Below, in pieces: positions 7,314 to 44,775 of a stretch of 64,000 bases of DNA. The notes under the pieces are model-generated. The model ran no database searches and was not told the origin of the DNA. It saw only the letters and a program-made list of their open reading frames with translations. The position numbers and the translations under genes are program-made. Every line of letters begins with the position of its first letter. Position 1 is the first letter of the stretch. The stretch is from Alphaproteobacteria bacterium (GTDB lineage: Bacteria > Pseudomonadota > Alphaproteobacteria > UBA11073): NCBI GenBank assembly GCA_965246755.1, contig OZ251979.1:1566642-1630641 (forward strand), written 5' to 3'.

Positions 7314-8756
7314 TTATATTTTGACATCAACCCGGCCGTCATTGGTGGTGCCGTGTGGCAGCATCGCAAAGGTGCGGGTGACAGTATCTGTGTTTGATGT
7401 TGCAAGCATTGTGCCAAATGCATCATTGTGCGCGGCGGATTTGTGATTGTTTTGCTGTGGTGATTGTCCGCCGTCACGCAAACTGAAACTTAACGTATCG
7501 GCATTGGTATCAAGACCGGCGCTTTGCAACGCGGTTGTTAACGCATCTCCATCTTTTTGCATCAGCTCTAACGTGTCGGCTTTATCAGCGGCGATGTGCG
7601 CCTTGATACGGCCGCCATCAAAACGCAGACGCACTTCAATGCGGCCAAGCTCTTGCGGTTGCAATTGAATAAGCATGGTCTGATTATGACCGCTGAGCGC
7701 CAGTTTTTGCATTTGCACGCTGACCATAACGCTGGCAGGATGAACCGGGGTGGCGGTCCGGGCTTGCTGGGCCAGATAGGCATCCAGTTTTTCTGTGGTG
7801 ATATTAGTATTGTTGGTTGGCAGTGTTTGGGAAATCAACTGCATTGGCATAGTGTCCAAATTTTTATTATCGCTGGTTAGCAGCGGATTAAATTTGTCAT
7901 CACTAACCGCCGCCACCGCAATAGCTGGCTGTTCAACAACCGCGTTAGAAACTTCGGTCAGGTTAAGTATTTTTTCAGGTGCTGGAATGTCGCCGGCGGC
8001 CTCTATAGCATGCGGCGCCCGCAGATGTCCGGCCACGCGTGTCATGTACATAATCCCCGGATCTTTAACCGGTGTTAAGCTGACATTGGCATCGTTATCA
8101 GCCTGGGGCAGGCGTGCGGTGGTCGCCGCCACAGGATTTTCTGAAACGTCCGCAGTGTTTGTGCCATCATCATGTGCAACCGGCGCGGCTTGATCGGCGG
8201 ATTTCGCCAGCAACTGCTTGACCTTATCGTTCAAAGTCACGAGCAGGCTGGGGTCGTTGGTTGCGGTCATCTTACCCAACAGGTCTTTGAAACCTTGCGT
8301 TTGTGCGGCATCAGTGGCGGCAAATTTTTCGAGATCTTTTAAAACCGCCGGATCGAACTTGGCTGTTAGATCAGCTGATAATGTGTTGCCTTTGCTTAAC
8401 GCAGCCAAGGCGGCGCTCACATCGCCGGCTAACAGCTGGCCTGACATCAATTGTTGCAGATTTGGAAACTGCTGCAACAACGCTGCCAGCTTAGCCGTTT
8501 CGGCGTCGGATAGTTTTAAATCCTGATTGTCTTTGTGAGGTGTCGCCAGATTTTGAACTTTTTTCAGCAAGGCACTGCCTTTATCATTAAGCGCAGCCAA
8601 TTGACTGTCACCGGACAAAGCCGCCATTAGTTGCTGCAGAAAATCTTGCGGCGTATCTTGTTTATCAGCGATCACGGCACTGTTTTTAGCAGGGGCTGGC
8701 GCAGCCTGATTAACAAAAGTGGTGATTTGTGGTAATGCAGCCATGATGGATCCCAA
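7314..8756 (-). CDS. fliK: Flagellar hook-length control protein FliK
   Basis: Low-complexity N-terminal region; C-terminal Flg_hook-type domain (QPQELGRIEVRLRFDGGRIKAHIAADKADTLELMQKDGDALTTALQSAGL); position after flgD. Confidence 0.7.
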   Translation of the reverse strand: MGSIMAALPQITTFVNQAAPAPAKNSAVIADKQDTPQDFLQQLMAALSGDSQLAALNDKGSALLKKVQNLATPHKDNQDLKLSDAETAKLAALLQQFPNLQQLMSGQLLAGDVSAALAALSKGNTLSADLTAKFDPAVLKDLEKFAATDAAQTQGFKDLLGKMTATNDPSLLVTLNDKVKQLLAKSADQAAPVAHDDGTNTADVSENPVAATTARLPQADNDANVSLTPVKDPGIMYMTRVAGHLRAPHAIEAAGDIPAPEKILNLTEVSNAVVEQPAIAVAAVSDDKFNPLLTSDNKNLDTMPMQLISQTLPTNNTNITTEKLDAYLAQQARTATPVHPASVMVSVQMQKLALSGHNQTMLIQLQPQELGRIEVRLRFDGGRIKAHIAADKADTLELMQKDGDALTTALQSAGLDTNADTLSFSLRDGGQSPQQNNHKSAAHNDAFGTMLATSNTDTVTRTFAMLPHGTTNDGRVDVKI

Positions 8757-9039
8757 TAAATTCCATCAATCCCATGCAAGCGGTATGCCAAATAAACAGA
8801 TACACCATCGCTAGTAAAACCTATCTTAAATTTTGCTAAAATGTTAATTATTTATGAAAGTAATTGTTTCGTTTGAAAAAGGCGCAAATTTTATGTATAA
8901 CATAATTGTTACATGAACTGAGATTAAGATGAAATTTACAAGGCTATGCCTTGTAAACAATAGGTTATGGGATATATCTCATGTCTATATTTAATTTTGT
9001 GACTGTGGCGTAACATCTGGCAAAGGTAAAGTAAAAATT

Positions 9040-10230
9040 ATGGCAACGGCAGCATCAAAAAAGAAAATTGTATCTAAACAATTAGTTAAATCAAAAAAAC
9101 TTACAAAATCAGTTAAATCACCTGTGAAAGCAAAAATGCCAGTTAAAAAAACGGTCGCCAAAAACATCACAACAAAAACAAAAGCCGTCACTAAACCTGT
9201 CGTTACAAAAACCGTTAAAGCTACTCAGTCTAAAGTCAAAGCTAAAAGTATGCCGGTCAAAGGTAAGGTAGCTAGCAAGGCGAAGCCGGTGGCGAAAAAG
9301 GTTGTAAAGCCAGTGGCTAAAAAAGCCGTGTCCAAGCCTATGGCCAAAACTCTTGCAAAAAAAACCATCATTCAAAAGCCGGTTGCCAAAGCCGCTAAAA
9401 TTGTAGCAAAACCGGCCATCACCGCAAAAACCGTGACTAAAGTCAGTAAGGCGGCCGCCGTGCAGCCTGCTAATAATAATCAGCTGCCTGCAATTGCCGT
9501 CGCCGCGCCGAAAAAGGTTAAAGCGCCAGCGCGCAACAAGAAACAAAAGGCGCTGGATAAAAAACTGGCGCGGACTTTGGTTAAAATCGCTAATGCCGGC
9601 CGCACCGGTCTGGCCAGCACGGGCGTGCAATCCGCGGCGGATGCCGCGTTGCGCGCCACGATGGCGATGGCCGCCAATACCAATAATGCACAAACCGCCG
9701 CGCCAGTGGTGGCGGTGGCTCCGGCCCAGCCAGCCAAATTGGAATTCTCCACCGGTGAAATGGTGGTCTATCCCGCCCACGGCGTTGGCCGGGTGGAAGG
9801 CGTTGAAACGCACACGATTGCCGGTACGGATGTCAAACTGTTCAAAATTACCTTTGAACATGACAAGATGACGTTAAAAGTGCCGGTGCAACGCGCCACC
9901 GGCTCCGGTCTGCGCCGCCTGTCGTCCAAGGATGTCATGAAAAATGCCATGGAAACACTGCGTGGCCGCCCGCGCATTCGCCGCGTCATGTGGTCACGCC
10001 GTGCGCAGGAATATGAGCAAAAGATTAACAGCGGCGATCCGGTCGCCATTGCCGAGGTCTTGCGCGACCTGCGCCGCAACGCGGAGTCGGGCGAGCAGTC
10101 TTATAGCGAACGTCAAATCTTTCAGAACGCGTTAGATCGTTTGGCGCGTGAAGTGGCTGCGGTTGAAAAAATTGAACATGAGAAAGCCGTTAAAAAATTG
10201 GAAGATGTGTTGACAAAAACGGCGGCCTAA
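9040..10230 (+). CDS. cdnL: CarD/CdnL-family transcription factor with ~230-aa N-terminal histone-H1-like Lys/Ala/Val/Thr-rich domain
   Basis: C-terminal 165 aa: FSTGEMVVYPAHGVGRVEGVETHTIAGTDVKLFKITFEHDKMTLKVPV...SERQIFQNALDRLAREVA = CarD_CdnL_TRCF domain; N-terminal KKxVAKP/KAVTKP repeats. Confidence 0.8.
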   Translation: MATAASKKKIVSKQLVKSKKLTKSVKSPVKAKMPVKKTVAKNITTKTKAVTKPVVTKTVKATQSKVKAKSMPVKGKVASKAKPVAKKVVKPVAKKAVSKPMAKTLAKKTIIQKPVAKAAKIVAKPAITAKTVTKVSKAAAVQPANNNQLPAIAVAAPKKVKAPARNKKQKALDKKLARTLVKIANAGRTGLASTGVQSAADAALRATMAMAANTNNAQTAAPVVAVAPAQPAKLEFSTGEMVVYPAHGVGRVEGVETHTIAGTDVKLFKITFEHDKMTLKVPVQRATGSGLRRLSSKDVMKNAMETLRGRPRIRRVMWSRRAQEYEQKINSGDPVAIAEVLRDLRRNAESGEQSYSERQIFQNALDRLAREVAAVEKIEHEKAVKKLEDVLTKTAA

Positions 10231-10249
10231 TTTCTCTGATGTCCAAACT

Positions 10250-10276
10250 AAAAGCGGGCTGCGGCCCGCTTTTTAG
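10250..10276 (+). terminator. Rho-independent terminator after cdnL
   Basis: agcgggctgcggcccgct hairpin followed by T5. Confidence 0.65.
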
Positions 10277-10320
10277 TGTTGCCAATACTTTATTATCTGA
10301 TTAATCTCTAAGAAGGTTTT

Positions 10321-10638
10321 TTGGAGATAGTTATGCGGAGAAAAGCACTTTTAGGAATTCAAGATCAGGGTAGATTATTAAATGCCCTCTGTTATGCATT
10401 CCATACTGGTTATCAAACCCCCAGCCTAATCAAACAAGATATAAGAGACGGAATTCGTGAAGGATCATATCCAAAATGGATGGTTAGAATTCCGCATCAT
10501 AATGTCGCATGCAGGCTCGCTCACTTAAGACAAAGTGGCGTGCTTAAATCTTATGTGCCTTTACCAGAAAAACTTGGGCCTCGACCGAATTTGCAACATG
10601 TAGATTCTGTGGGCTGTCCGTTAGCACCGGCACCATAA
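10321..10638 (+). CDS. Hypothetical protein, AT-rich ORF
   Basis: 105-aa ORF in a low-GC segment; no recognisable family. Confidence 0.25.
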   Translation: MEIVMRRKALLGIQDQGRLLNALCYAFHTGYQTPSLIKQDIRDGIREGSYPKWMVRIPHHNVACRLAHLRQSGVLKSYVPLPEKLGPRPNLQHVDSVGCPLAPAP

Positions 10639-10656
10639 AAATAAAAATTCATTTAG

Positions 10657-10739
10657 AAATGAATTGCTTTGCCATAGGCTGACAGCACGCTTTCGTGCAG
10701 CATTTCGGATAGGGTTGGATGCGGGAAGATGGTGTGCAT
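10657..10739. repeat. Direct repeat copy 1: orphan duplicate of the last 28 codons of lpdA, with the adjacent hairpin terminator aaattcatttagaaatgaatt
   Basis: 81/84 nt identical to 11428-11511; encodes MHTIFPHPTLSEMLHESVLSAYGKAIHF, identical to the LpdA C-terminus; all 3 differences are synonymous. Confidence 0.85.
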
Positions 10740-11086
10740 TATATTTTTTCCTGTTGGCGTGCTTTAGCCAATTGCTGTTGCTGCAGCATAAATTCACGCA
10801 ATACAGCATTCATACGCGATTGGTAACCGCGGCCAAATGATTTAAACCAAGTTACTACATCATTATCAAAACGGATGGTTAGTTGGTTTTTGCGTTCTTG
10901 AAAGCTTTGCATCTTTGTAGCCAGATCTTCTAGGCCATGCACAGCAACGCTATTTTCCCAGTCAATTTCATAAGGCAAAACATCATCCTCATCAGCCAAG
11001 ATTTCAGCTTCGGTCACGGCAACACGCGACCAATCGGTCTTACCCTTTAATTTTTTTAAATCTTCGATAGTGTGAGATTTCAGCAT
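10739..11086 (-). CDS. brnA: BrnA-type antitoxin (DUF4415 N-terminal region plus ribbon-helix-helix C-terminus)
   Basis: KGKTDWSRVAVTEAEILADEDDVLP and TIRFDNDVVTWFKSFGRGYQSRMNAVLREFM match BrnA; overlaps the upstream toxin gene. Confidence 0.7.
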   Translation of the reverse strand: MLKSHTIEDLKKLKGKTDWSRVAVTEAEILADEDDVLPYEIDWENSVAVHGLEDLATKMQSFQERKNQLTIRFDNDVVTWFKSFGRGYQSRMNAVLREFMLQQQQLAKARQQEKI

Positions 11087-11315
11087 CCCTTGCTCTCCTC
11101 ATCGAAATAATGCGAATGACGGACACGCGCATCGTGATAATAACTGAAATGAACCGATTGTCTAAAAGACCGGTAGCAACAAAACGTAACTCTTCATTTC
11201 TATGGGTAGGCAGTAAAATCGGTTTATTTTCAAAAAATCTTGCAACATCTTCAAAATCCAATCCATGCTTGGCTAAATTTGACAGCTGCTTCTCTTCATC
11301 CCATTCAAATTGCAT
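11040..11315 (-). CDS. brnT: BrnT-type toxin (DUF497, RelE-fold ribonuclease)
   Basis: MQFEWDEEKQLSNLAKHGLDFEDVARFF is the hallmark BrnT N-terminus; ~90 aa. Confidence 0.8.
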   Translation of the reverse strand: MQFEWDEEKQLSNLAKHGLDFEDVARFFENKPILLPTHRNEELRFVATGLLDNRFISVIITMRVSVIRIISMRRARDAEISHYRRFKKIKG

Positions 11316-11425
11316 GCTATGCCTTGTTCAATTGAAGTTTTCTTCAAGCAATTGATTTAAGCACAATTCAAGCATCGGTCATTACCGTAAAATTATTATA
11401 ACTACAAATGTAACTACAAGTCAAG

Positions 11426-12826
11426 CTAAAAATGAATTGCTTTGCCATAGGCTGACAGCACGCTTTCATGCAACATTTCGGATAGGGTTGGATGCGGGAA
11501 AATGGTGTGCATCAAGTCCGCCTCGGTTGTTTCCATGGTTTTGGCAATGTTATAACCCTGGATTAGTTCAGTGACTTCAGTGCCGATCATATGCGCACCG
11601 AGCAATTCACCGGTTTTGGCATCAAAGATGGTTTTGATTAAACCTTCGGGTTCACCAAGCGCAATCGCCTTGCCATTACCGATAAACGGAAACTTGCCAA
11701 CCTTGAGCGTATAACCTTTTTCGCGTGCTTTGGCTTCGGTATAGCCAACCGAGGCAACCTGCGGCGTGCAATAGGTACAGCCGGGAATGTTGGTCACATT
11801 CAAGGGATGCACGCCTGGTATGCCAAAGATTTTTTCAACACATATGACGCCTTCATGGCTGGCTTTGTGCGCGAGCCACGGCGGCCCCGCGACATCGCCA
11901 ATCGCATAAACACCCTTTTCCGCCGTTTCGCACCACTGATTGATAACAATCTGGCCGCGCTCAACTTTAATCTTGGTATTTTCCAGGCCGATGTTTTCGA
12001 CGTTGCCAATGATGCCAACTGCAGAAATCACGCGATCAACCGTCAGCGTGTCAATTTTGCCGCCCGCCTCGATAGTAGCGGTCACATTATCCTGGCTTTT
12101 ATCGAGCTTTACAACTTTGGCGCCGGTTTTGATGGTCATACCCTGTTTTTCAAACGCCTTGCGCGCAAAGGCGGAGACCTCGTCATCCTCCACCGGCAGC
12201 ACACGGTCCATGATTTCAACCACCGTGACCTGCGCGCCCAGCGCATTATAAAAGCTGGCGAATTCAATGCCGATCGCGCCGCTGCCGATCACCAGTAATG
12301 ACTTCGGCATCTGCTGCGGCACCATCGCCTCGCGTGAGGTCCAAACCAGTTTGCCGTCTGGCTCCAGTCCCGGCAATATGCGGGGACGCGCGCCGATCGC
12401 CAGCACGATATGCGGTGCGGCGAGGGTCGCGGCATCTTTATTATCTTTACTGACTTTTAATTGGCCCTTGCCGAGCAAAGTCCCCTGCCCGTCAAAAACG
12501 GTAATCTTGTTTTTCTTCATCAAATGCTTGATGCCGCCGACCAACTGTGCCGATACATCGCGCGAACGTTTGACGATTTTGGACAGATCAAATGCCTGAT
12601 CCTTCGCCGAGACGCCATACTCATCAAGATGATGCAAGAGGTGGTAAATTTCAGCCGAGCGCAACAGTGCCTTGGTTGGAATACAGCCCCAGTTAAGGCA
12701 GATGCCGCCTAGATGTTCACGCTCTACCAGTGCGACTTTTTTGCCCAGCTGCGCCGCGCGGATCGCCGCCACATAACCGCCTGGCCCACCGCCGACAATA
12801 ATAATGTCAAAGTTTTCAGACGTCAT
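11426..12826 (-). CDS. lpdA: Dihydrolipoyl dehydrogenase (E3)
   Basis: IIVGGGPGGYVAAIRAAQLG FAD motif, redox-active GGICLNWGCIPTK disulfide, C-terminal dimerisation domain with HAHPTLSE-type motif. Confidence 0.9.
   Translation of the reverse strand: MTSENFDIIIVGGGPGGYVAAIRAAQLGKKVALVEREHLGGICLNWGCIPTKALLRSAEIYHLLHHLDEYGVSAKDQAFDLSKIVKRSRDVSAQLVGGIKHLMKKNKITVFDGQGTLLGKGQLKVSKDNKDAATLAAPHIVLAIGARPRILPGLEPDGKLVWTSREAMVPQQMPKSLLVIGSGAIGIEFASFYNALGAQVTVVEIMDRVLPVEDDEVSAFARKAFEKQGMTIKTGAKVVKLDKSQDNVTATIEAGGKIDTLTVDRVISAVGIIGNVENIGLENTKIKVERGQIVINQWCETAEKGVYAIGDVAGPPWLAHKASHEGVICVEKIFGIPGVHPLNVTNIPGCTYCTPQVASVGYTEAKAREKGYTLKVGKFPFIGNGKAIALGEPEGLIKTIFDAKTGELLGAHMIGTEVTELIQGYNIAKTMETTEADLMHTIFPHPTLSEMLHESVLSAYGKAIHF
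11428..11511. repeat. Direct repeat copy 2 (functional 3' end of lpdA)
   Basis: See copy 1; this copy is in frame with the intact lpdA. Confidence 0.85.
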
Positions 12827-28083: not shown

Positions 28084-29250
28084 TTGGGGGGCCTCATGCC
28101 GGTTACACCAGACACATATATAATAAGTGAGGCCGAGCGGCTGGCCTGGTTGCGCCTGTCGCGCAGTGAAAATGTCGGCCCCATCACCTTTAACCGCCTG
28201 CTGCGGCAATTCGGCTCTGCCGTCCGGGCGCTGGACGCCATCCCTGACCTGGCCCGCCGCGGCGGGCGCCTGCAAAAACTGAAGATCCAAAGTGAGGCGG
28301 ATGGCCGCGCGGAAATCCAGGCCCTTACCAAACTGGGGGCCCGGCACCTGTTATCCTGTGATGCCGCTTACCCCGCCATCCTGCGCCATTTGGAAGATGC
28401 GCCGCCGGTTTTGACGGTGAAGGGCAATCCGGCGCTGCTCGAAAAACCGATGGTCAGCATCGTGGGCGCGCGGAATGCCTCGCTGCCCGGCCGGCGCATG
28501 GCGGAAATTCTAGCCGCAGAATTGGGCCAAGCCGGCTATACTATCGTCTCCGGTCTCGCGCGCGGGATTGATACCGCCGCGCATGGCGCTAGCCTTACCG
28601 ACGGTACAGTGGCCGTGGTCGCGGGCGGTATTGATATTGTTTATCCGGCGGAAAACCAAACCCTGTATGACAAGATTTGCGCGCAAGGTATTGTAATTGC
28701 GGAAAATCCGCCAGGGGTGCCGCCCACCAACCGTGACTTTCCCCGCCGCAACCGCATCATCTCCGGCCTCGCCCTCGGCACCGTCATTGTCGAGGCTGCG
28801 CTGAAATCCGGCTCGCTCATCACCGCGCGTTATGCGCTGGAGCAAGGGCGCGAAGTGTTTGCCATCCCCGGCTCGCCCCTTGATCCGCGCGCCGGCGGTA
28901 CCAATAAATTAATCAAGGATGGCGCAACCCTGGTGGAAAGCGCCGCCGACATTATAAATGTGTTGCGAAATATGCAGGAACCAACCGCCCTTGCCGAGCC
29001 GTGGCAAACCTACCGCAATGCGCCGCTGCAATATGATGATAATGCCGTGGCGGTCGCACGGCGGCGCACGCTGACCGATTTGCTATCCTTCACCCCCGTA
29101 ACGCTGGATGAAATCCTGCGCACGGGCGAGGTCAATCCGGCGGCGCTCCACACTGCCCTGCTCGAACTTGAACTCGCCGGGCGCGCCCAGCGCCTGTCCG
29201 GCAACCGCGTTATTTTGGCGACTGATGATACAGAAATGAAGGCAATGTAA
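28084..29250 (+). CDS. dprA: DNA processing protein DprA (Smf)
   Basis: Rossmann-like DprA core IVSGLARGIDTAAHGASL..., C-terminal winged-helix region. Confidence 0.85.
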   Translation: MGGLMPVTPDTYIISEAERLAWLRLSRSENVGPITFNRLLRQFGSAVRALDAIPDLARRGGRLQKLKIQSEADGRAEIQALTKLGARHLLSCDAAYPAILRHLEDAPPVLTVKGNPALLEKPMVSIVGARNASLPGRRMAEILAAELGQAGYTIVSGLARGIDTAAHGASLTDGTVAVVAGGIDIVYPAENQTLYDKICAQGIVIAENPPGVPPTNRDFPRRNRIISGLALGTVIVEAALKSGSLITARYALEQGREVFAIPGSPLDPRAGGTNKLIKDGATLVESAADIINVLRNMQEPTALAEPWQTYRNAPLQYDDNAVAVARRRTLTDLLSFTPVTLDEILRTGEVNPAALHTALLELELAGRAQRLSGNRVILATDDTEMKAM

Positions 29251-31904
29251 TGGCACAAGATAACCTCGTCATCGTCGAAAGTCCGGCCAAAGCTAAAACC
29301 ATCGAAAAATATCTGGGGCCGGATTATAAAGTCCTCGCCAGTTTCGGGCATATCCGCGATCTGCTGCCCAAAGATGGCGCGGTGCGCCCCGATGAAGACT
29401 TCGCGATGGATTGGGTGCTGGGCGACCGTGCTCATAAAAATGTCAAAGAGATTGAACGCGCCGTTAAAACCTCTAAAACATTATATCTTGCGACCGACCC
29501 GGACCGCGAGGGCGAGGCCATTTCCTGGCATGTCAAAGAATATCTGGATGAAAAGAATTTATTAAAAGGCCGCACTATTCATCGCGTCACTTTTAACGAA
29601 ATTACCAAAAGCGCGATTCAGACTGCGTTTAAGCAGCCGCGGGAAATCAATGCCGAGCTGGTTGAAGCTTATCTGGCGCGCCGCGCGCTGGATTTTTTAG
29701 TCGGCTTTAACCTGTCGCCGATTTTGTGGCGCAAATTGCCGGGCGCACGGTCGGCGGGGCGGGTGCAGTCGGTCGCGCTGCGCCTCATCTGCGAACGTGA
29801 ATTTGAAATTGAACAGTTTAAGCCCCAAGAATATTGGTCAGTTGAAGCGCTGTTTCAAACGAATAGCGGCGCCACTTTTACCGCGCGGCTAACGCATTTT
29901 GACGGCCAAAAACTGGACAAATTTGCCATCAATAACGAAACGCGCGCGCAAGAGATTCTAGCCGCATTGCAAAAACAAAATTTTACCGTCAGCGATGTGA
30001 CGAAGAAAGAAGTCAAACGTCATCCGGCCGCGCCATTTATTACCTCAAGCTTGCAGATGGAAGCGTCACGCAAACTCGGTTTCGGCGCTAGCCAAACCAT
30101 GCGCACCGCGCAAAAACTTTATGAAGGCGTGACGCTGGGCGGCGAAACGGTCGGACTTATCACCTATATGCGGACTGATGGCGTGCAATTGTCCCAAGAT
30201 GCAATCTACTCCTGCCGCACGACGATTGATAAATTGTACGGCCAGGATTATTTGCCGGAACAACCACGCATCTATTCATCAAAAGCCAAAAACGCGCAGG
30301 AAGCGCATGAGGCAATTCGCCCCACCGATCTCGCGCGTACGCCTGATTACGTCGCCAAATATGTCGATCATGATCAGGCGCGGTTGTATGAATTGATCTG
30401 GAAACGCACGTTGGCCGCGCAGATGGCTAGCGCGGTTCTGGACCAGGCTACCGTCGATATTACCGGCACGAACAAGGCGGCGTTCCGCGCCACCGGTTCG
30501 GTGGTGAAATTCGACGGGTTTTTTAAACTCTATTTTGAAGATACTGACGATATGCCGTCTGACAGTGAGGATAATCGCCGCTTGCCGCCGCTGACTGTCA
30601 AAGACGCGTTGCAGACGAACAGCATTAAACCCGAACAGCATTTCACGCAGCCGCCGCCACGTTTCAGCGAGGCGTCGCTGGTCAAGGCCTTGGAAGAGCT
30701 TGGCATCGGCCGCCCTTCTACCTATGCCTCGATCATCCAGGTGTTGCAGGACCGCAATTATGTGCGGCTCGATAAAAAGCGTTTTGTGCCCGAAGATCGC
30801 GGGCGGATTGTCACAACCTTCCTTACCAATTTTTTCCGCCGTTATGTGGAATATGATTTTACCGCCGCGCTTGAAGGCCAGCTGGATGAAATTTCCGCCG
30901 GCGCGTTGGATTGGAAAGACATGCTGCGCAAATTCTGGGTCGAATTTATCGGCGCGGTCGATGAAACCAAACCACTTACCATCACGCAGGTGATTGATGT
31001 GCTGGATGCGGAGCTGGATAAGTTTTTATTTCCGCCGCGCGCAGATGGCAGTGATCCGCGCAAATGTCCGCGTGATAGTGGTCGCCTTGGTTTAAAGCTC
31101 GGTAAATTCGGCGCCTTTGTCGGCTGCTCGAATTATCCGGAGTGCAAAGAAACGCGGCCATTGGGTCTCGCCGAAAGCGCCGCCGCTGCCAACGGCGGCG
31201 GTGTGTTTGAACCGCGTGAAATCGGCATTGATCCTGACAGTGGTGAAGTTATCACCATCAAGCTTGGCCCCTATGGCCCTTATCTCGAACGGCCTAATGG
31301 TGACAACAAGCCCAAACGCGCGTCGTTGACGCCCGGCACCAACCTGGATGCCATTACGCTGGAAGATGCCGTCAAATTATTATTGCTGCCGCGCGAGGTG
31401 GGGATTTTCCCCGAAACCGGCGATCCGATTTACGCCAACGTCGGCCGGTTCGGGCCCTATATTCAAACCGGTAAATTGCTGGCGTCATTGCCCAAGGGTG
31501 AAACGGCGCAGGATATCGGCCCCAACCGCGCGGTGGATATTTTGATGGAGAAAATTGCGCGCAGCCTGCCGGTTAAAGAATTGGATAATCATCCAGACGA
31601 TGATGCGCCAATCGGCATTTATCGTAGCCGGTTTGGTTTTGTCATTCGTCATAATGATATCGAGGCGCGCCTTGCCAAAGGCACCGACCCACAAGACATC
31701 GACAGTGCCACCGCCATTTTGTTATTAAAGCAGATGGGCAAACCGGCGTTCAAATTTGGCAAGAAAAAGGGCAAAGGTAAAACCACCGCGCCAAAGAAAA
31801 CAGCTGTTAAAAAAACCGCCGTGAAAAAGACAGCTGCCAAAAAAACTGCCGCTAAAAAATCTGCGGTAAAAAAGACCGCCGCTAAGCAAGTTACGGCAAA
31901 ATAA
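29250..31904 (+). CDS. topA: DNA topoisomerase I with C-terminal Lys-rich (VKKTA)n tail
   Basis: TOPRIM N-terminus (LVIVESPAKAKTIEKYLG), catalytic Tyr region, C-terminal Zn-ribbon-like repeats, terminal KKTAVKKTAVKKTAAKKTAAKKSAVKKTAAK. Confidence 0.9.
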   Translation: MAQDNLVIVESPAKAKTIEKYLGPDYKVLASFGHIRDLLPKDGAVRPDEDFAMDWVLGDRAHKNVKEIERAVKTSKTLYLATDPDREGEAISWHVKEYLDEKNLLKGRTIHRVTFNEITKSAIQTAFKQPREINAELVEAYLARRALDFLVGFNLSPILWRKLPGARSAGRVQSVALRLICEREFEIEQFKPQEYWSVEALFQTNSGATFTARLTHFDGQKLDKFAINNETRAQEILAALQKQNFTVSDVTKKEVKRHPAAPFITSSLQMEASRKLGFGASQTMRTAQKLYEGVTLGGETVGLITYMRTDGVQLSQDAIYSCRTTIDKLYGQDYLPEQPRIYSSKAKNAQEAHEAIRPTDLARTPDYVAKYVDHDQARLYELIWKRTLAAQMASAVLDQATVDITGTNKAAFRATGSVVKFDGFFKLYFEDTDDMPSDSEDNRRLPPLTVKDALQTNSIKPEQHFTQPPPRFSEASLVKALEELGIGRPSTYASIIQVLQDRNYVRLDKKRFVPEDRGRIVTTFLTNFFRRYVEYDFTAALEGQLDEISAGALDWKDMLRKFWVEFIGAVDETKPLTITQVIDVLDAELDKFLFPPRADGSDPRKCPRDSGRLGLKLGKFGAFVGCSNYPECKETRPLGLAESAAAANGGGVFEPREIGIDPDSGEVITIKLGPYGPYLERPNGDNKPKRASLTPGTNLDAITLEDAVKLLLLPREVGIFPETGDPIYANVGRFGPYIQTGKLLASLPKGETAQDIGPNRAVDILMEKIARSLPVKELDNHPDDDAPIGIYRSRFGFVIRHNDIEARLAKGTDPQDIDSATAILLLKQMGKPAFKFGKKKGKGKTTAPKKTAVKKTAVKKTAAKKTAAKKSAVKKTAAKQVTAK
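31791..31885 (+). repeat. 15-bp tandem repeat (~6 units) encoding the (V/A)KKTA pentapeptide tail of TopA
   Basis: Units gttaaaaaaaccgcc / gtgaaaaagacagct / gccaaaaaaactgcc / gctaaaaaatctgcg / gtaaaaaagaccgcc. Confidence 0.8.
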
Positions 31905-44109: not shown

Positions 44110-44775
44110 ATGGCAACTCAGAACAAAAATAATCTTTTATCCGAAATCACTGACGGTCTTGGCGATGCAATGGACGCATTCCAAAAACGTTGGGCGGACG
44201 GCGCCGGTACGGGACGCGGCAAATCTGCCAGCAAATCGTCAAGCCGCAGCACCTCCAGCCGGACTGGCGCGCGCAAAACCACTGCAAAAAAATCCAGCAC
44301 CGGCACGCGCAGCACAACTGCAAAAAAACCGACCGCTAAAAAATCAACGGCCAAAAAAACCACTGCCAAAAAATTAACTGCTGGCCGTAAAGCGACTACC
44401 ACCGCGCGCAAGGCAACCACTGCTGCCAAACGCAGCACAACTGCCACCCGCAAAACCGGCAGCGGCACGGCGCGTAAATCTGGTACTGCCGCACGCAGCA
44501 CCGCAAAAAAATCCACGGTGCGCAAGTCAACTGCCGGTAAGGCTACCAGCCGCACTGCCGGCAGCAAAGCCGCTGCCCGCAAGTCAACTGGCAGCAAAAC
44601 AACTGCACGTAAATCAACTACAAGTCGCAGCAGCACGACAGGACGTAAAGCCACCACTGCGGCACGCAAAGCAGTTTCAACTGCGAAACGTGCTATTGGT
44701 CGTGCAACGACTGGCCGTAAAACCGCTGGTCGCCCGTCAACGGCAAGCCGCACCGGTAGCAGCCGCAGCAGATAA
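44110..44775 (+). CDS. Histone-H1-like, highly basic low-complexity protein (A/T/K/R/S repeats)
   Basis: 221 aa; after a ~40-aa N-terminal region the rest is (A/T)(K/R)K(S/T)T-type repeats; followed by a strong terminator. Confidence 0.6.
   Translation: MATQNKNNLLSEITDGLGDAMDAFQKRWADGAGTGRGKSASKSSSRSTSSRTGARKTTAKKSSTGTRSTTAKKPTAKKSTAKKTTAKKLTAGRKATTTARKATTAAKRSTTATRKTGSGTARKSGTAARSTAKKSTVRKSTAGKATSRTAGSKAAARKSTGSKTTARKSTTSRSSTTGRKATTAARKAVSTAKRAIGRATTGRKTAGRPSTASRTGSSRSR

Follow-up and report, generated by a model that had tools for sequence, protein, structure and literature searches.

Within the 64,000-nucleotide stretch of alphaproteobacterial DNA analyzed here (the window; contig OZ251979.1), a cdnL-type gene (9040..10230, + strand; ATG start, 396 codons plus stop) encodes a 396-residue protein that is, by sequence, the organism's CdnL ortholog, with 232 residues placed ahead of the canonical module. 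We lean towards a reading in which the long N-terminal tail acts as a non-specific tether to DNA or another polyanion and a conserved island behind it serves as a lineage-specific interaction element. As a housekeeping transcription factor, CdnL/CarD is nearly universal among alphaproteobacteria, actinobacteria and other groups; to our knowledge, the field regards it as a small protein that stands alone and gains access to DNA solely via RNA polymerase (RNAP).

The original prediction, made from the DNA letters and their open reading frames, assigned the C-terminal ~165 residues to a CdnL/CarD_TRCF RNAP-interacting module. This assignment is correct, since Pfam, PDB alignments, an AlphaFold2 model and Foldseek concur. 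The module (residues 233–396; 9736..10227, +) comprises a Tudor-like RID, a helical CarD_C domain containing the wedge tryptophan W318, and the C-terminal end ...TKTAA. Pfam places CarD_TRCF_RID (PF02559) on residues 236–293 (48.3 bits, cut-off 23), where the original prediction had expected it, and CarD_C (PF21095) on residues 303–387 (79.4 bits, cut-off 23.1). Solved CarD/CdnL chains of 160–170 residues align over their full length to residues 234–394, among them 8hvr_H (E 5.6e-20), Myxococcus xanthus CdnL (2lwj_A) and Mycobacterium tuberculosis CarD (4kbm_B and 6edt). Within this alignment VMWSRRAQ lies opposite the W-S-R-R of the solved CarDs, in the region of M. tuberculosis W85, which identifies W318 (codon 9991–9993) as the wedge residue, a role described for CarD (PMC12976309). 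In the AlphaFold2 model of the whole protein, built on 12 sequences, most blocks of the module have a predicted local distance difference test score (pLDDT) of 77–93; Foldseek with this model matches solely the Tudor folds of CarD/CdnL, Mfd and UvrD, and superposes the RID on 9e88_M and 2lqk with a root-mean-square deviation of 1.3–1.6 Å.

When queried alone, the module is 67–74% identical to CdnLs of 165–197 residues (mostly 166–167) of Azospirillum and its relatives. For TopA from the window as well as for CdnL, the nearest homologs are alphaproteobacterial (Azospirillum, Stellaceae, Inquilinus and Acetobacteraceae). Two features described for alphaproteobacterial CdnL are a long 5′ region and a degron at the C-terminus, AA or VA (PMC5324124); the present gene has both, with an AA end, as in most alphaproteobacterial CdnLs, directly after CarD_C and an upstream intergenic region of 283 bp. 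It is only the narrow definition of CdnL as a standalone protein of ~150–200 residues into which a protein of 396 residues, 232 of them ahead of the module, does not fit.

The residues ahead of the module had been described as one histone H1-like, Lys/Ala-rich domain of ~230 residues. A long basic Lys/Ala-rich region is indeed present, but it consists of three parts, only the first ~160 residues are low-complexity tail, and the likeness to H1 is one of composition. This first part (residues 1–160; 9040..9519, +) is a polycationic, intrinsically disordered tail with a pLDDT below 50 throughout; it contains 44 Lys/Arg and no Asp or Glu (net charge +44, isoelectric point 11.6), and is composed of 28% K, 18% A, 16% V, 9% T and 7% P. 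Compared with the H1 C-terminal domain it is similar in kind and likewise disordered, but Val-rich and less Lys-dense. Searches of residues 1–233 with hmmscan against Pfam gave no H1, Hc1 or HC2 match at E ≤ 10, the sole match being a spurious one to Peptidase_S46, and NCBIfam returned nothing meaningful for the N-terminal 233 residues; the term “histone H1-like” is thus compositional alone. The KKxVAKP/KAVTKP-type repeats reported for the tail are degenerate, with KPVAK occurring three times, and Tandem Repeats Finder detected no DNA-level tandem repeat in the tail-coding DNA. In orthologs the tail keeps a K+R content of 20–30% and a D+E content of at most 2% although its sequence diverges.

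The tail is followed by a conserved island (residues 161–216, KKQKALDKKLARTLVKIANAGRTGLASTGVQSAADAALRATMAMAANTNN; 9520..9687, +) with the consensus KKxKxLDKKxARTLVKIANAxxTxxAxxGVxSAAxAAxxATxA. An alignment of ten family members shows 19 invariant columns in it and a mean column identity of 73%. Two helices are predicted, at residues 170–186 (pLDDT ~70) and 196–211, the mean pLDDT of 10-residue blocks ranging from 46 to 70. When 1.84 billion cluster representatives were searched with a profile of the island, the single match (P0011) was itself a family member, and the island is, by this search, limited to one small lineage. An uncharged Ala/Pro/Val/Gln linker (residues 217–232; 9688..9735, +), defined by its composition, with a pLDDT below 50 and of varying length in orthologs, connects the island to the module.

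Contrary to the view that this topology is unusual, tailed relatives are not rare. The best 120 matches of the full-length query are all 224–404 residues long, and in the 117 of these in which the RID position could be measured, the N-terminal extensions span 65–233 residues, nearly all of them basic (K+R 20–40%) with very few acidic residues. The full-length search is biased towards Lys-rich words, and the 117 homolog clusters are a lower bound; the best 120 matches of the module-only query, by comparison, are nearly all canonical proteins of 165–197 residues, mostly 166–167. In a less biased sample of 80 species-level genomes picked on module patterns, extensions of at least 75 residues occur in ~13 of the 79 counted, about one in six, including Roseomonas (109 to ~305 residues), Tepidicaulis marinus and metagenome-assembled genomes; Rhodobacterales and others have none. 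In a neighbor-joining tree of 243 modules the tailed proteins fall, with few exceptions, into several coherent clades, a pattern suggesting vertical inheritance within clades together with repeated gain or loss. Most of the 120 homologs have N-termini of the M-A/T-K-x-x-K type, and conserved islands lie within the tails of at least four clades: in addition to the two-helix island, VKVT[MV][KQ]GKT..KV occurs in 40, RPxYRPIQVINKxLxPxQP in 10 and LSVEEAVARVMGVVGKKE in 2 of the 120 (homologs P0012–P0120). A further homolog of 227 residues, on a 1.7-kb ENA contig (P0125), has part of its C-terminal domain duplicated (KLRGxxRAKRTMWSRRAQEY... occurs twice), probably an assembly artefact.

Long forms had already been seen, since Table 1 of a 2010 survey lists alphaproteobacterial homologs of 143–456 residues, without discussing the long ones (PMC2919716). 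Beyond this length range, we found no description of a basic N-terminal CdnL extension in the searchable literature. The tailed type of CdnL is widespread in sequence databases and, as far as we found, uncharacterized; the lineage-specific two-helix island and the different islands of other clades are its newest elements.

As in characterized CdnL/CarD proteins, the module would dock on the RNAP β subunit via its Tudor-like RID, and the helical C-domain with its Trp wedge would stabilize the open promoter complex (RPo). The polycationic tail would act as a sequence-non-specific electrostatic tether to DNA or another polyanion, holding CdnL on the nucleoid, raising its local concentration and contacting promoter-flanking DNA; in this it would be a functional analogue of the HMGA/H1-like C-terminal domain of myxobacterial CarD, independently evolved and attached at the opposite end. 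The 56-residue two-helix island would serve as a lineage-specific interaction element. We take the charge bias of the tail (basic, with few acidic residues), kept across orthologs and the 117 homologs despite sequence divergence, to reflect selection. DNA binding by the tail, and any effect on transcription, are inferred, with precedents in known proteins. Caulobacter CdnL is itself basic, and its basic residues mediate weak, non-specific DNA binding (PMC5324124); the title of a reference in another report calls the DNA-binding domain of CarD HMGA-like or H1-like (PMC4182748), and TopA from the window has a comparable K/A/T tail.

Several observations weigh against this proposal. No known DNA-binding domain is matched by Pfam on residues 1–233, and a polycationic tail can bind RNA or polyphosphate just as well. 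The closest CdnL modules (including L001–L003) have no tail at all; the core function can therefore do without one. The Shine-Dalgarno sequence ahead of ATG 9040 is weak in this genome. The GC content at third codon positions (GC3) is 0.39 over the tail-coding DNA (9040–9519), compared with 0.62 for the module and 0.51–0.60 for other genes; the Ala, Thr and Pro codons of the tail are shifted to A/T endings, and GC3 dips likewise in the ortholog (0.47 versus 0.65).

The first alternative, which we consider unlikely, keeps the module as assigned and directs the tail elsewhere, to another polyanion or compartment such as nascent ribosomal RNA, polyphosphate granules or RNAP condensates, or has it tune turnover together with the AA degron. 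Composition alone cannot tell polyanions apart, and disorder extends over the whole tail; for AlgP, an H1-like protein, action on polyphosphate granules is described (PMC9239181), and in Caulobacter CdnL levels are set by proteolysis (PMC5324124). However, CdnL works at promoters on DNA-bound RNAP, which makes DNA the nearest polyanion, and the analogous basic domain of CarD binds DNA, as the 2010 survey states (PMC2919716).

A less probable alternative is that the extension is a largely neutral low-complexity expansion, lengthened and shortened by slippage and drift and tolerated without a specific function. The very variable length of the extensions (65–305 residues), their patchy distribution across clades with gains and losses, the poor alignment of the tails, the tail-less state of the closest modules and the atypical GC3 are all consistent with such an origin. 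Neutral expansion does not, however, readily accommodate the exclusion of acidic residues and the K+R level held across the 117 homologs, the recurrent form of the N-terminus, or the islands that four or more clades have within their tails, and DNA-level repeats such as slippage leaves were not found.

The long frame is almost certainly translated, and there is good support for initiation at ATG 9040. By chance, 232 codons would stay open with a probability of ~(61/64)^232, or ~1e-5, and the other frames across 9040–9735 contain 3 to 27 stops each. In 11 orthologs aligned over their full length (P0001–P0011, 55–62% identity) the frame is open for 170–207 codons ahead of the module, and all 11 begin with an N-terminus of the M-A/T-x-K type. 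The conservation of residues 161–216 at the protein level places the start of translation upstream of the island. The share of AAA among Lys codons is 0.77 in the tail, 0.77 in the module and 0.72 in six other genes. An in-frame stop lies at 8992, 16 codons upstream of ATG 9040, and the Shine-Dalgarno-like element is AAAGG (9022..9026, +; −18 to −14), 13 nt before the ATG. The ortholog at locus L081 has a clear GGAG 6 nt ahead of its ATG, with an in-frame stop 9 codons upstream. The identical 396-residue product is present in a public protein collection (P0364), annotated on a 1.93-Mb NCBI/ENA contig, and none of seven shorter variants is. That the true start instead lies near the CdnL module, leaving the upstream frame as an untranslated leader, the condition named as refuting the original prediction, is highly improbable: alphaproteobacterial cdnL genes typically have long 5′ leaders (PMC5324124) and the AAAGG element is weak, but neither of the only start codons near the module, TTG 9739 and ATG 9760, is preceded by a Shine-Dalgarno sequence, a start at ATG 9760 would cost the protein its first RID strand, and the protein-level conservation of the island, the open frame in every ortholog, the ribosome-binding site at the long start of L081 and the annotated product of 396 residues all oppose it.

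Two other candidate features of this frame were rejected. There is no sign of a conserved internal start that would yield a short isoform, since neither M208 nor M210 is kept in orthologs or preceded by a Shine-Dalgarno sequence, and an antisense open reading frame (ORF) overlapping cdnL (9118..9861, −; 247 residues) is a shadow of the low-complexity, GC-rich coding strand and not a gene. In the public collection the 396-residue CdnL is clustered under a 39-residue “hypothetical protein” representative (P0364/P0365), so homology searches cannot return it; low-complexity tails may lead to similar mis-clustering elsewhere.

Compared with standalone CdnL/CarD proteins (Caulobacter CdnL, Rhodobacter CarD, Mycobacterium and Thermus CarD, and Myxococcus CdnL), the protein shares the complete RID and CarD_C, the WSRR wedge and the AA end; in alignment with M. 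tuberculosis CarD, R25 is replaced by His258 and R47 by Lys280. With myxobacterial CarD (M. xanthus, and Anaeromyxobacter with an H1-like domain) it has in common an RNAP-binding module joined to a basic disordered region. In CarD, however, that region is C-terminal, whereas here, as the original prediction had recognized, it lies at the opposite end, with CarD_C at the C-terminus, and it has neither AT-hooks nor an acidic stretch. The module, moreover, is the alphaproteobacterial CdnL ortholog by sequence rather than CarDNt. A C-terminal HMGA-type/AT-hook or H1-like domain is absent, and while CarD is confined to Cystobacterineae (PMC2919716), the nearest relatives of the present CdnL and TopA are alphaproteobacterial. 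The resemblance to myxobacterial CarD looks like convergence and not membership.

Lys/Ala-rich “H1-like” tails are known from bacterial DNA-associated proteins, including actinobacterial HupB and TopA, Deinococcus HU with its N-terminal extension, and chlamydial Hc1/Hc2. The CdnL tail shares with these, and with AlgP, a low-complexity K/A/(P/T/V) polycation without acidic residues, but has lower K (28%) and higher V (16%), no regular repeats and no HC2/H1 match, and its fusion partner is an RNAP-binding factor, not a nucleoid protein. Two further basic proteins are encoded in the window. TopA (29250–31904, +) ends in a 50-residue tail (31752–31901) of KKTA(V/A)-type units with 40% K, 22% A, 16% T and a net charge of +20, compositionally akin to that of CdnL; an identical TopA is present in the public collection on a 1.93-Mb contig (P0244), other TopA sequences being at most 67% identical and named relatives 57–62%. 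A standalone protein of 221 residues (44110–44775, +) has a short acidic N-terminus followed by a T/A/S/K/R-rich region with a net charge of +55 over 187 residues, and gives a sub-threshold match to the Pfam family HC2, “histone H1-like nucleoprotein” (27.8 bits, cut-off 40). In light of these two proteins, basic tails seem characteristic of this genome.

The surroundings of cdnL agree with the original description of a divergent fliK operon, a terminator after the stop codon and low-GC DNA downstream. Upstream and divergently oriented are fliK (Flg_hook), flgD, flgE, a gene for a flagellar hook-domain protein (DUF1217/FlgE_D2) and fliF; genes for lipoamide dehydrogenase (lpdA) and a 2-oxoacid dehydrogenase E2 follow downstream on the minus strand. 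The same order, with fliK-flgD-flgE divergent upstream and lpdA and E2 downstream, is found around ortholog P0005 (locus L081), an arrangement that supports orthology. The intergenic region upstream of cdnL is AT-rich (GC 0.27–0.34) and has conserved blocks in common with L081. It contains a candidate σ70-type promoter inferred from its sequence (8873..8901, +; TTGAAA, 17-nt spacer, TATAAC), of which the TTTGAAAAAGG block and spacing are kept in L081. The promoter was identified by eye, having been missed by a consensus scan because its −10 hexamer has no final T. In alphaproteobacterial promoters −7T is commonly absent, and CarD makes up for its lack (PMC7703639, PMC12976309).

The probable 5′ leader contains a 10-bp perfect hairpin/palindrome, TTTACAAGGC-TAT-GCCTTGTAAA (8935..8957, +), which folds with a free energy (ΔG) of −11.8 kcal/mol (z −3.5; 0 of 200 shuffles as stable). 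L081 does not conserve this inverted repeat, a possible operator or RNA hairpin, and Rfam detected no leader RNA family in 8000–11500. Following the stop codon is an intrinsic terminator (10247..10280, +), a GC-rich hairpin AAAAGCGGGC-TGCG-GCCCGCTTTTT and then a T-run, which was missed by a consensus terminator scan and checked by folding (ΔG −20.4 kcal/mol, z −3.4; 0 of 200 shuffles as stable). The DNA downstream of cdnL has a GC content of 0.37–0.44, and its low-GC stretch (10321–11315) carries an orphan ORF of 105 residues (10321–10638) without a Pfam match and a BrnT/BrnA type II toxin-antitoxin pair (11040–11315 and 10739–11086, −). Both are absent from the equivalent position in L081, which suggests an insertion.

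More tentatively, tailed CdnLs may form an unrecognized, widespread alphaproteobacterial counterpart of myxobacterial CarD, global factors bound to RNAP and anchored to DNA by an N-terminal polycation of independent origin, in which clade-specific islands (the two-helix island, VKVTMKGKT, RPxYRPIQVINK and LSVEEAVARV) would recruit lineage-specific partners, as CarD recruits CarG; were this so, the targeting of CdnL to promoters would be altered in these bacteria. The findings provide an incremental insight into a known family and do not describe a new system. Should polycationic tails with conserved motifs be present on a sizeable fraction of alphaproteobacterial CdnLs, the recruitment, nucleoid residence time and regulation of these proteins may depart from what the Caulobacter and Rhodobacter models show, and the CarD-like design of an RNAP binder with a basic DNA anchor would have two or more origins. 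The role of the tail can be tested in cultured carriers, namely Roseomonas spp. and Tepidicaulis marinus.

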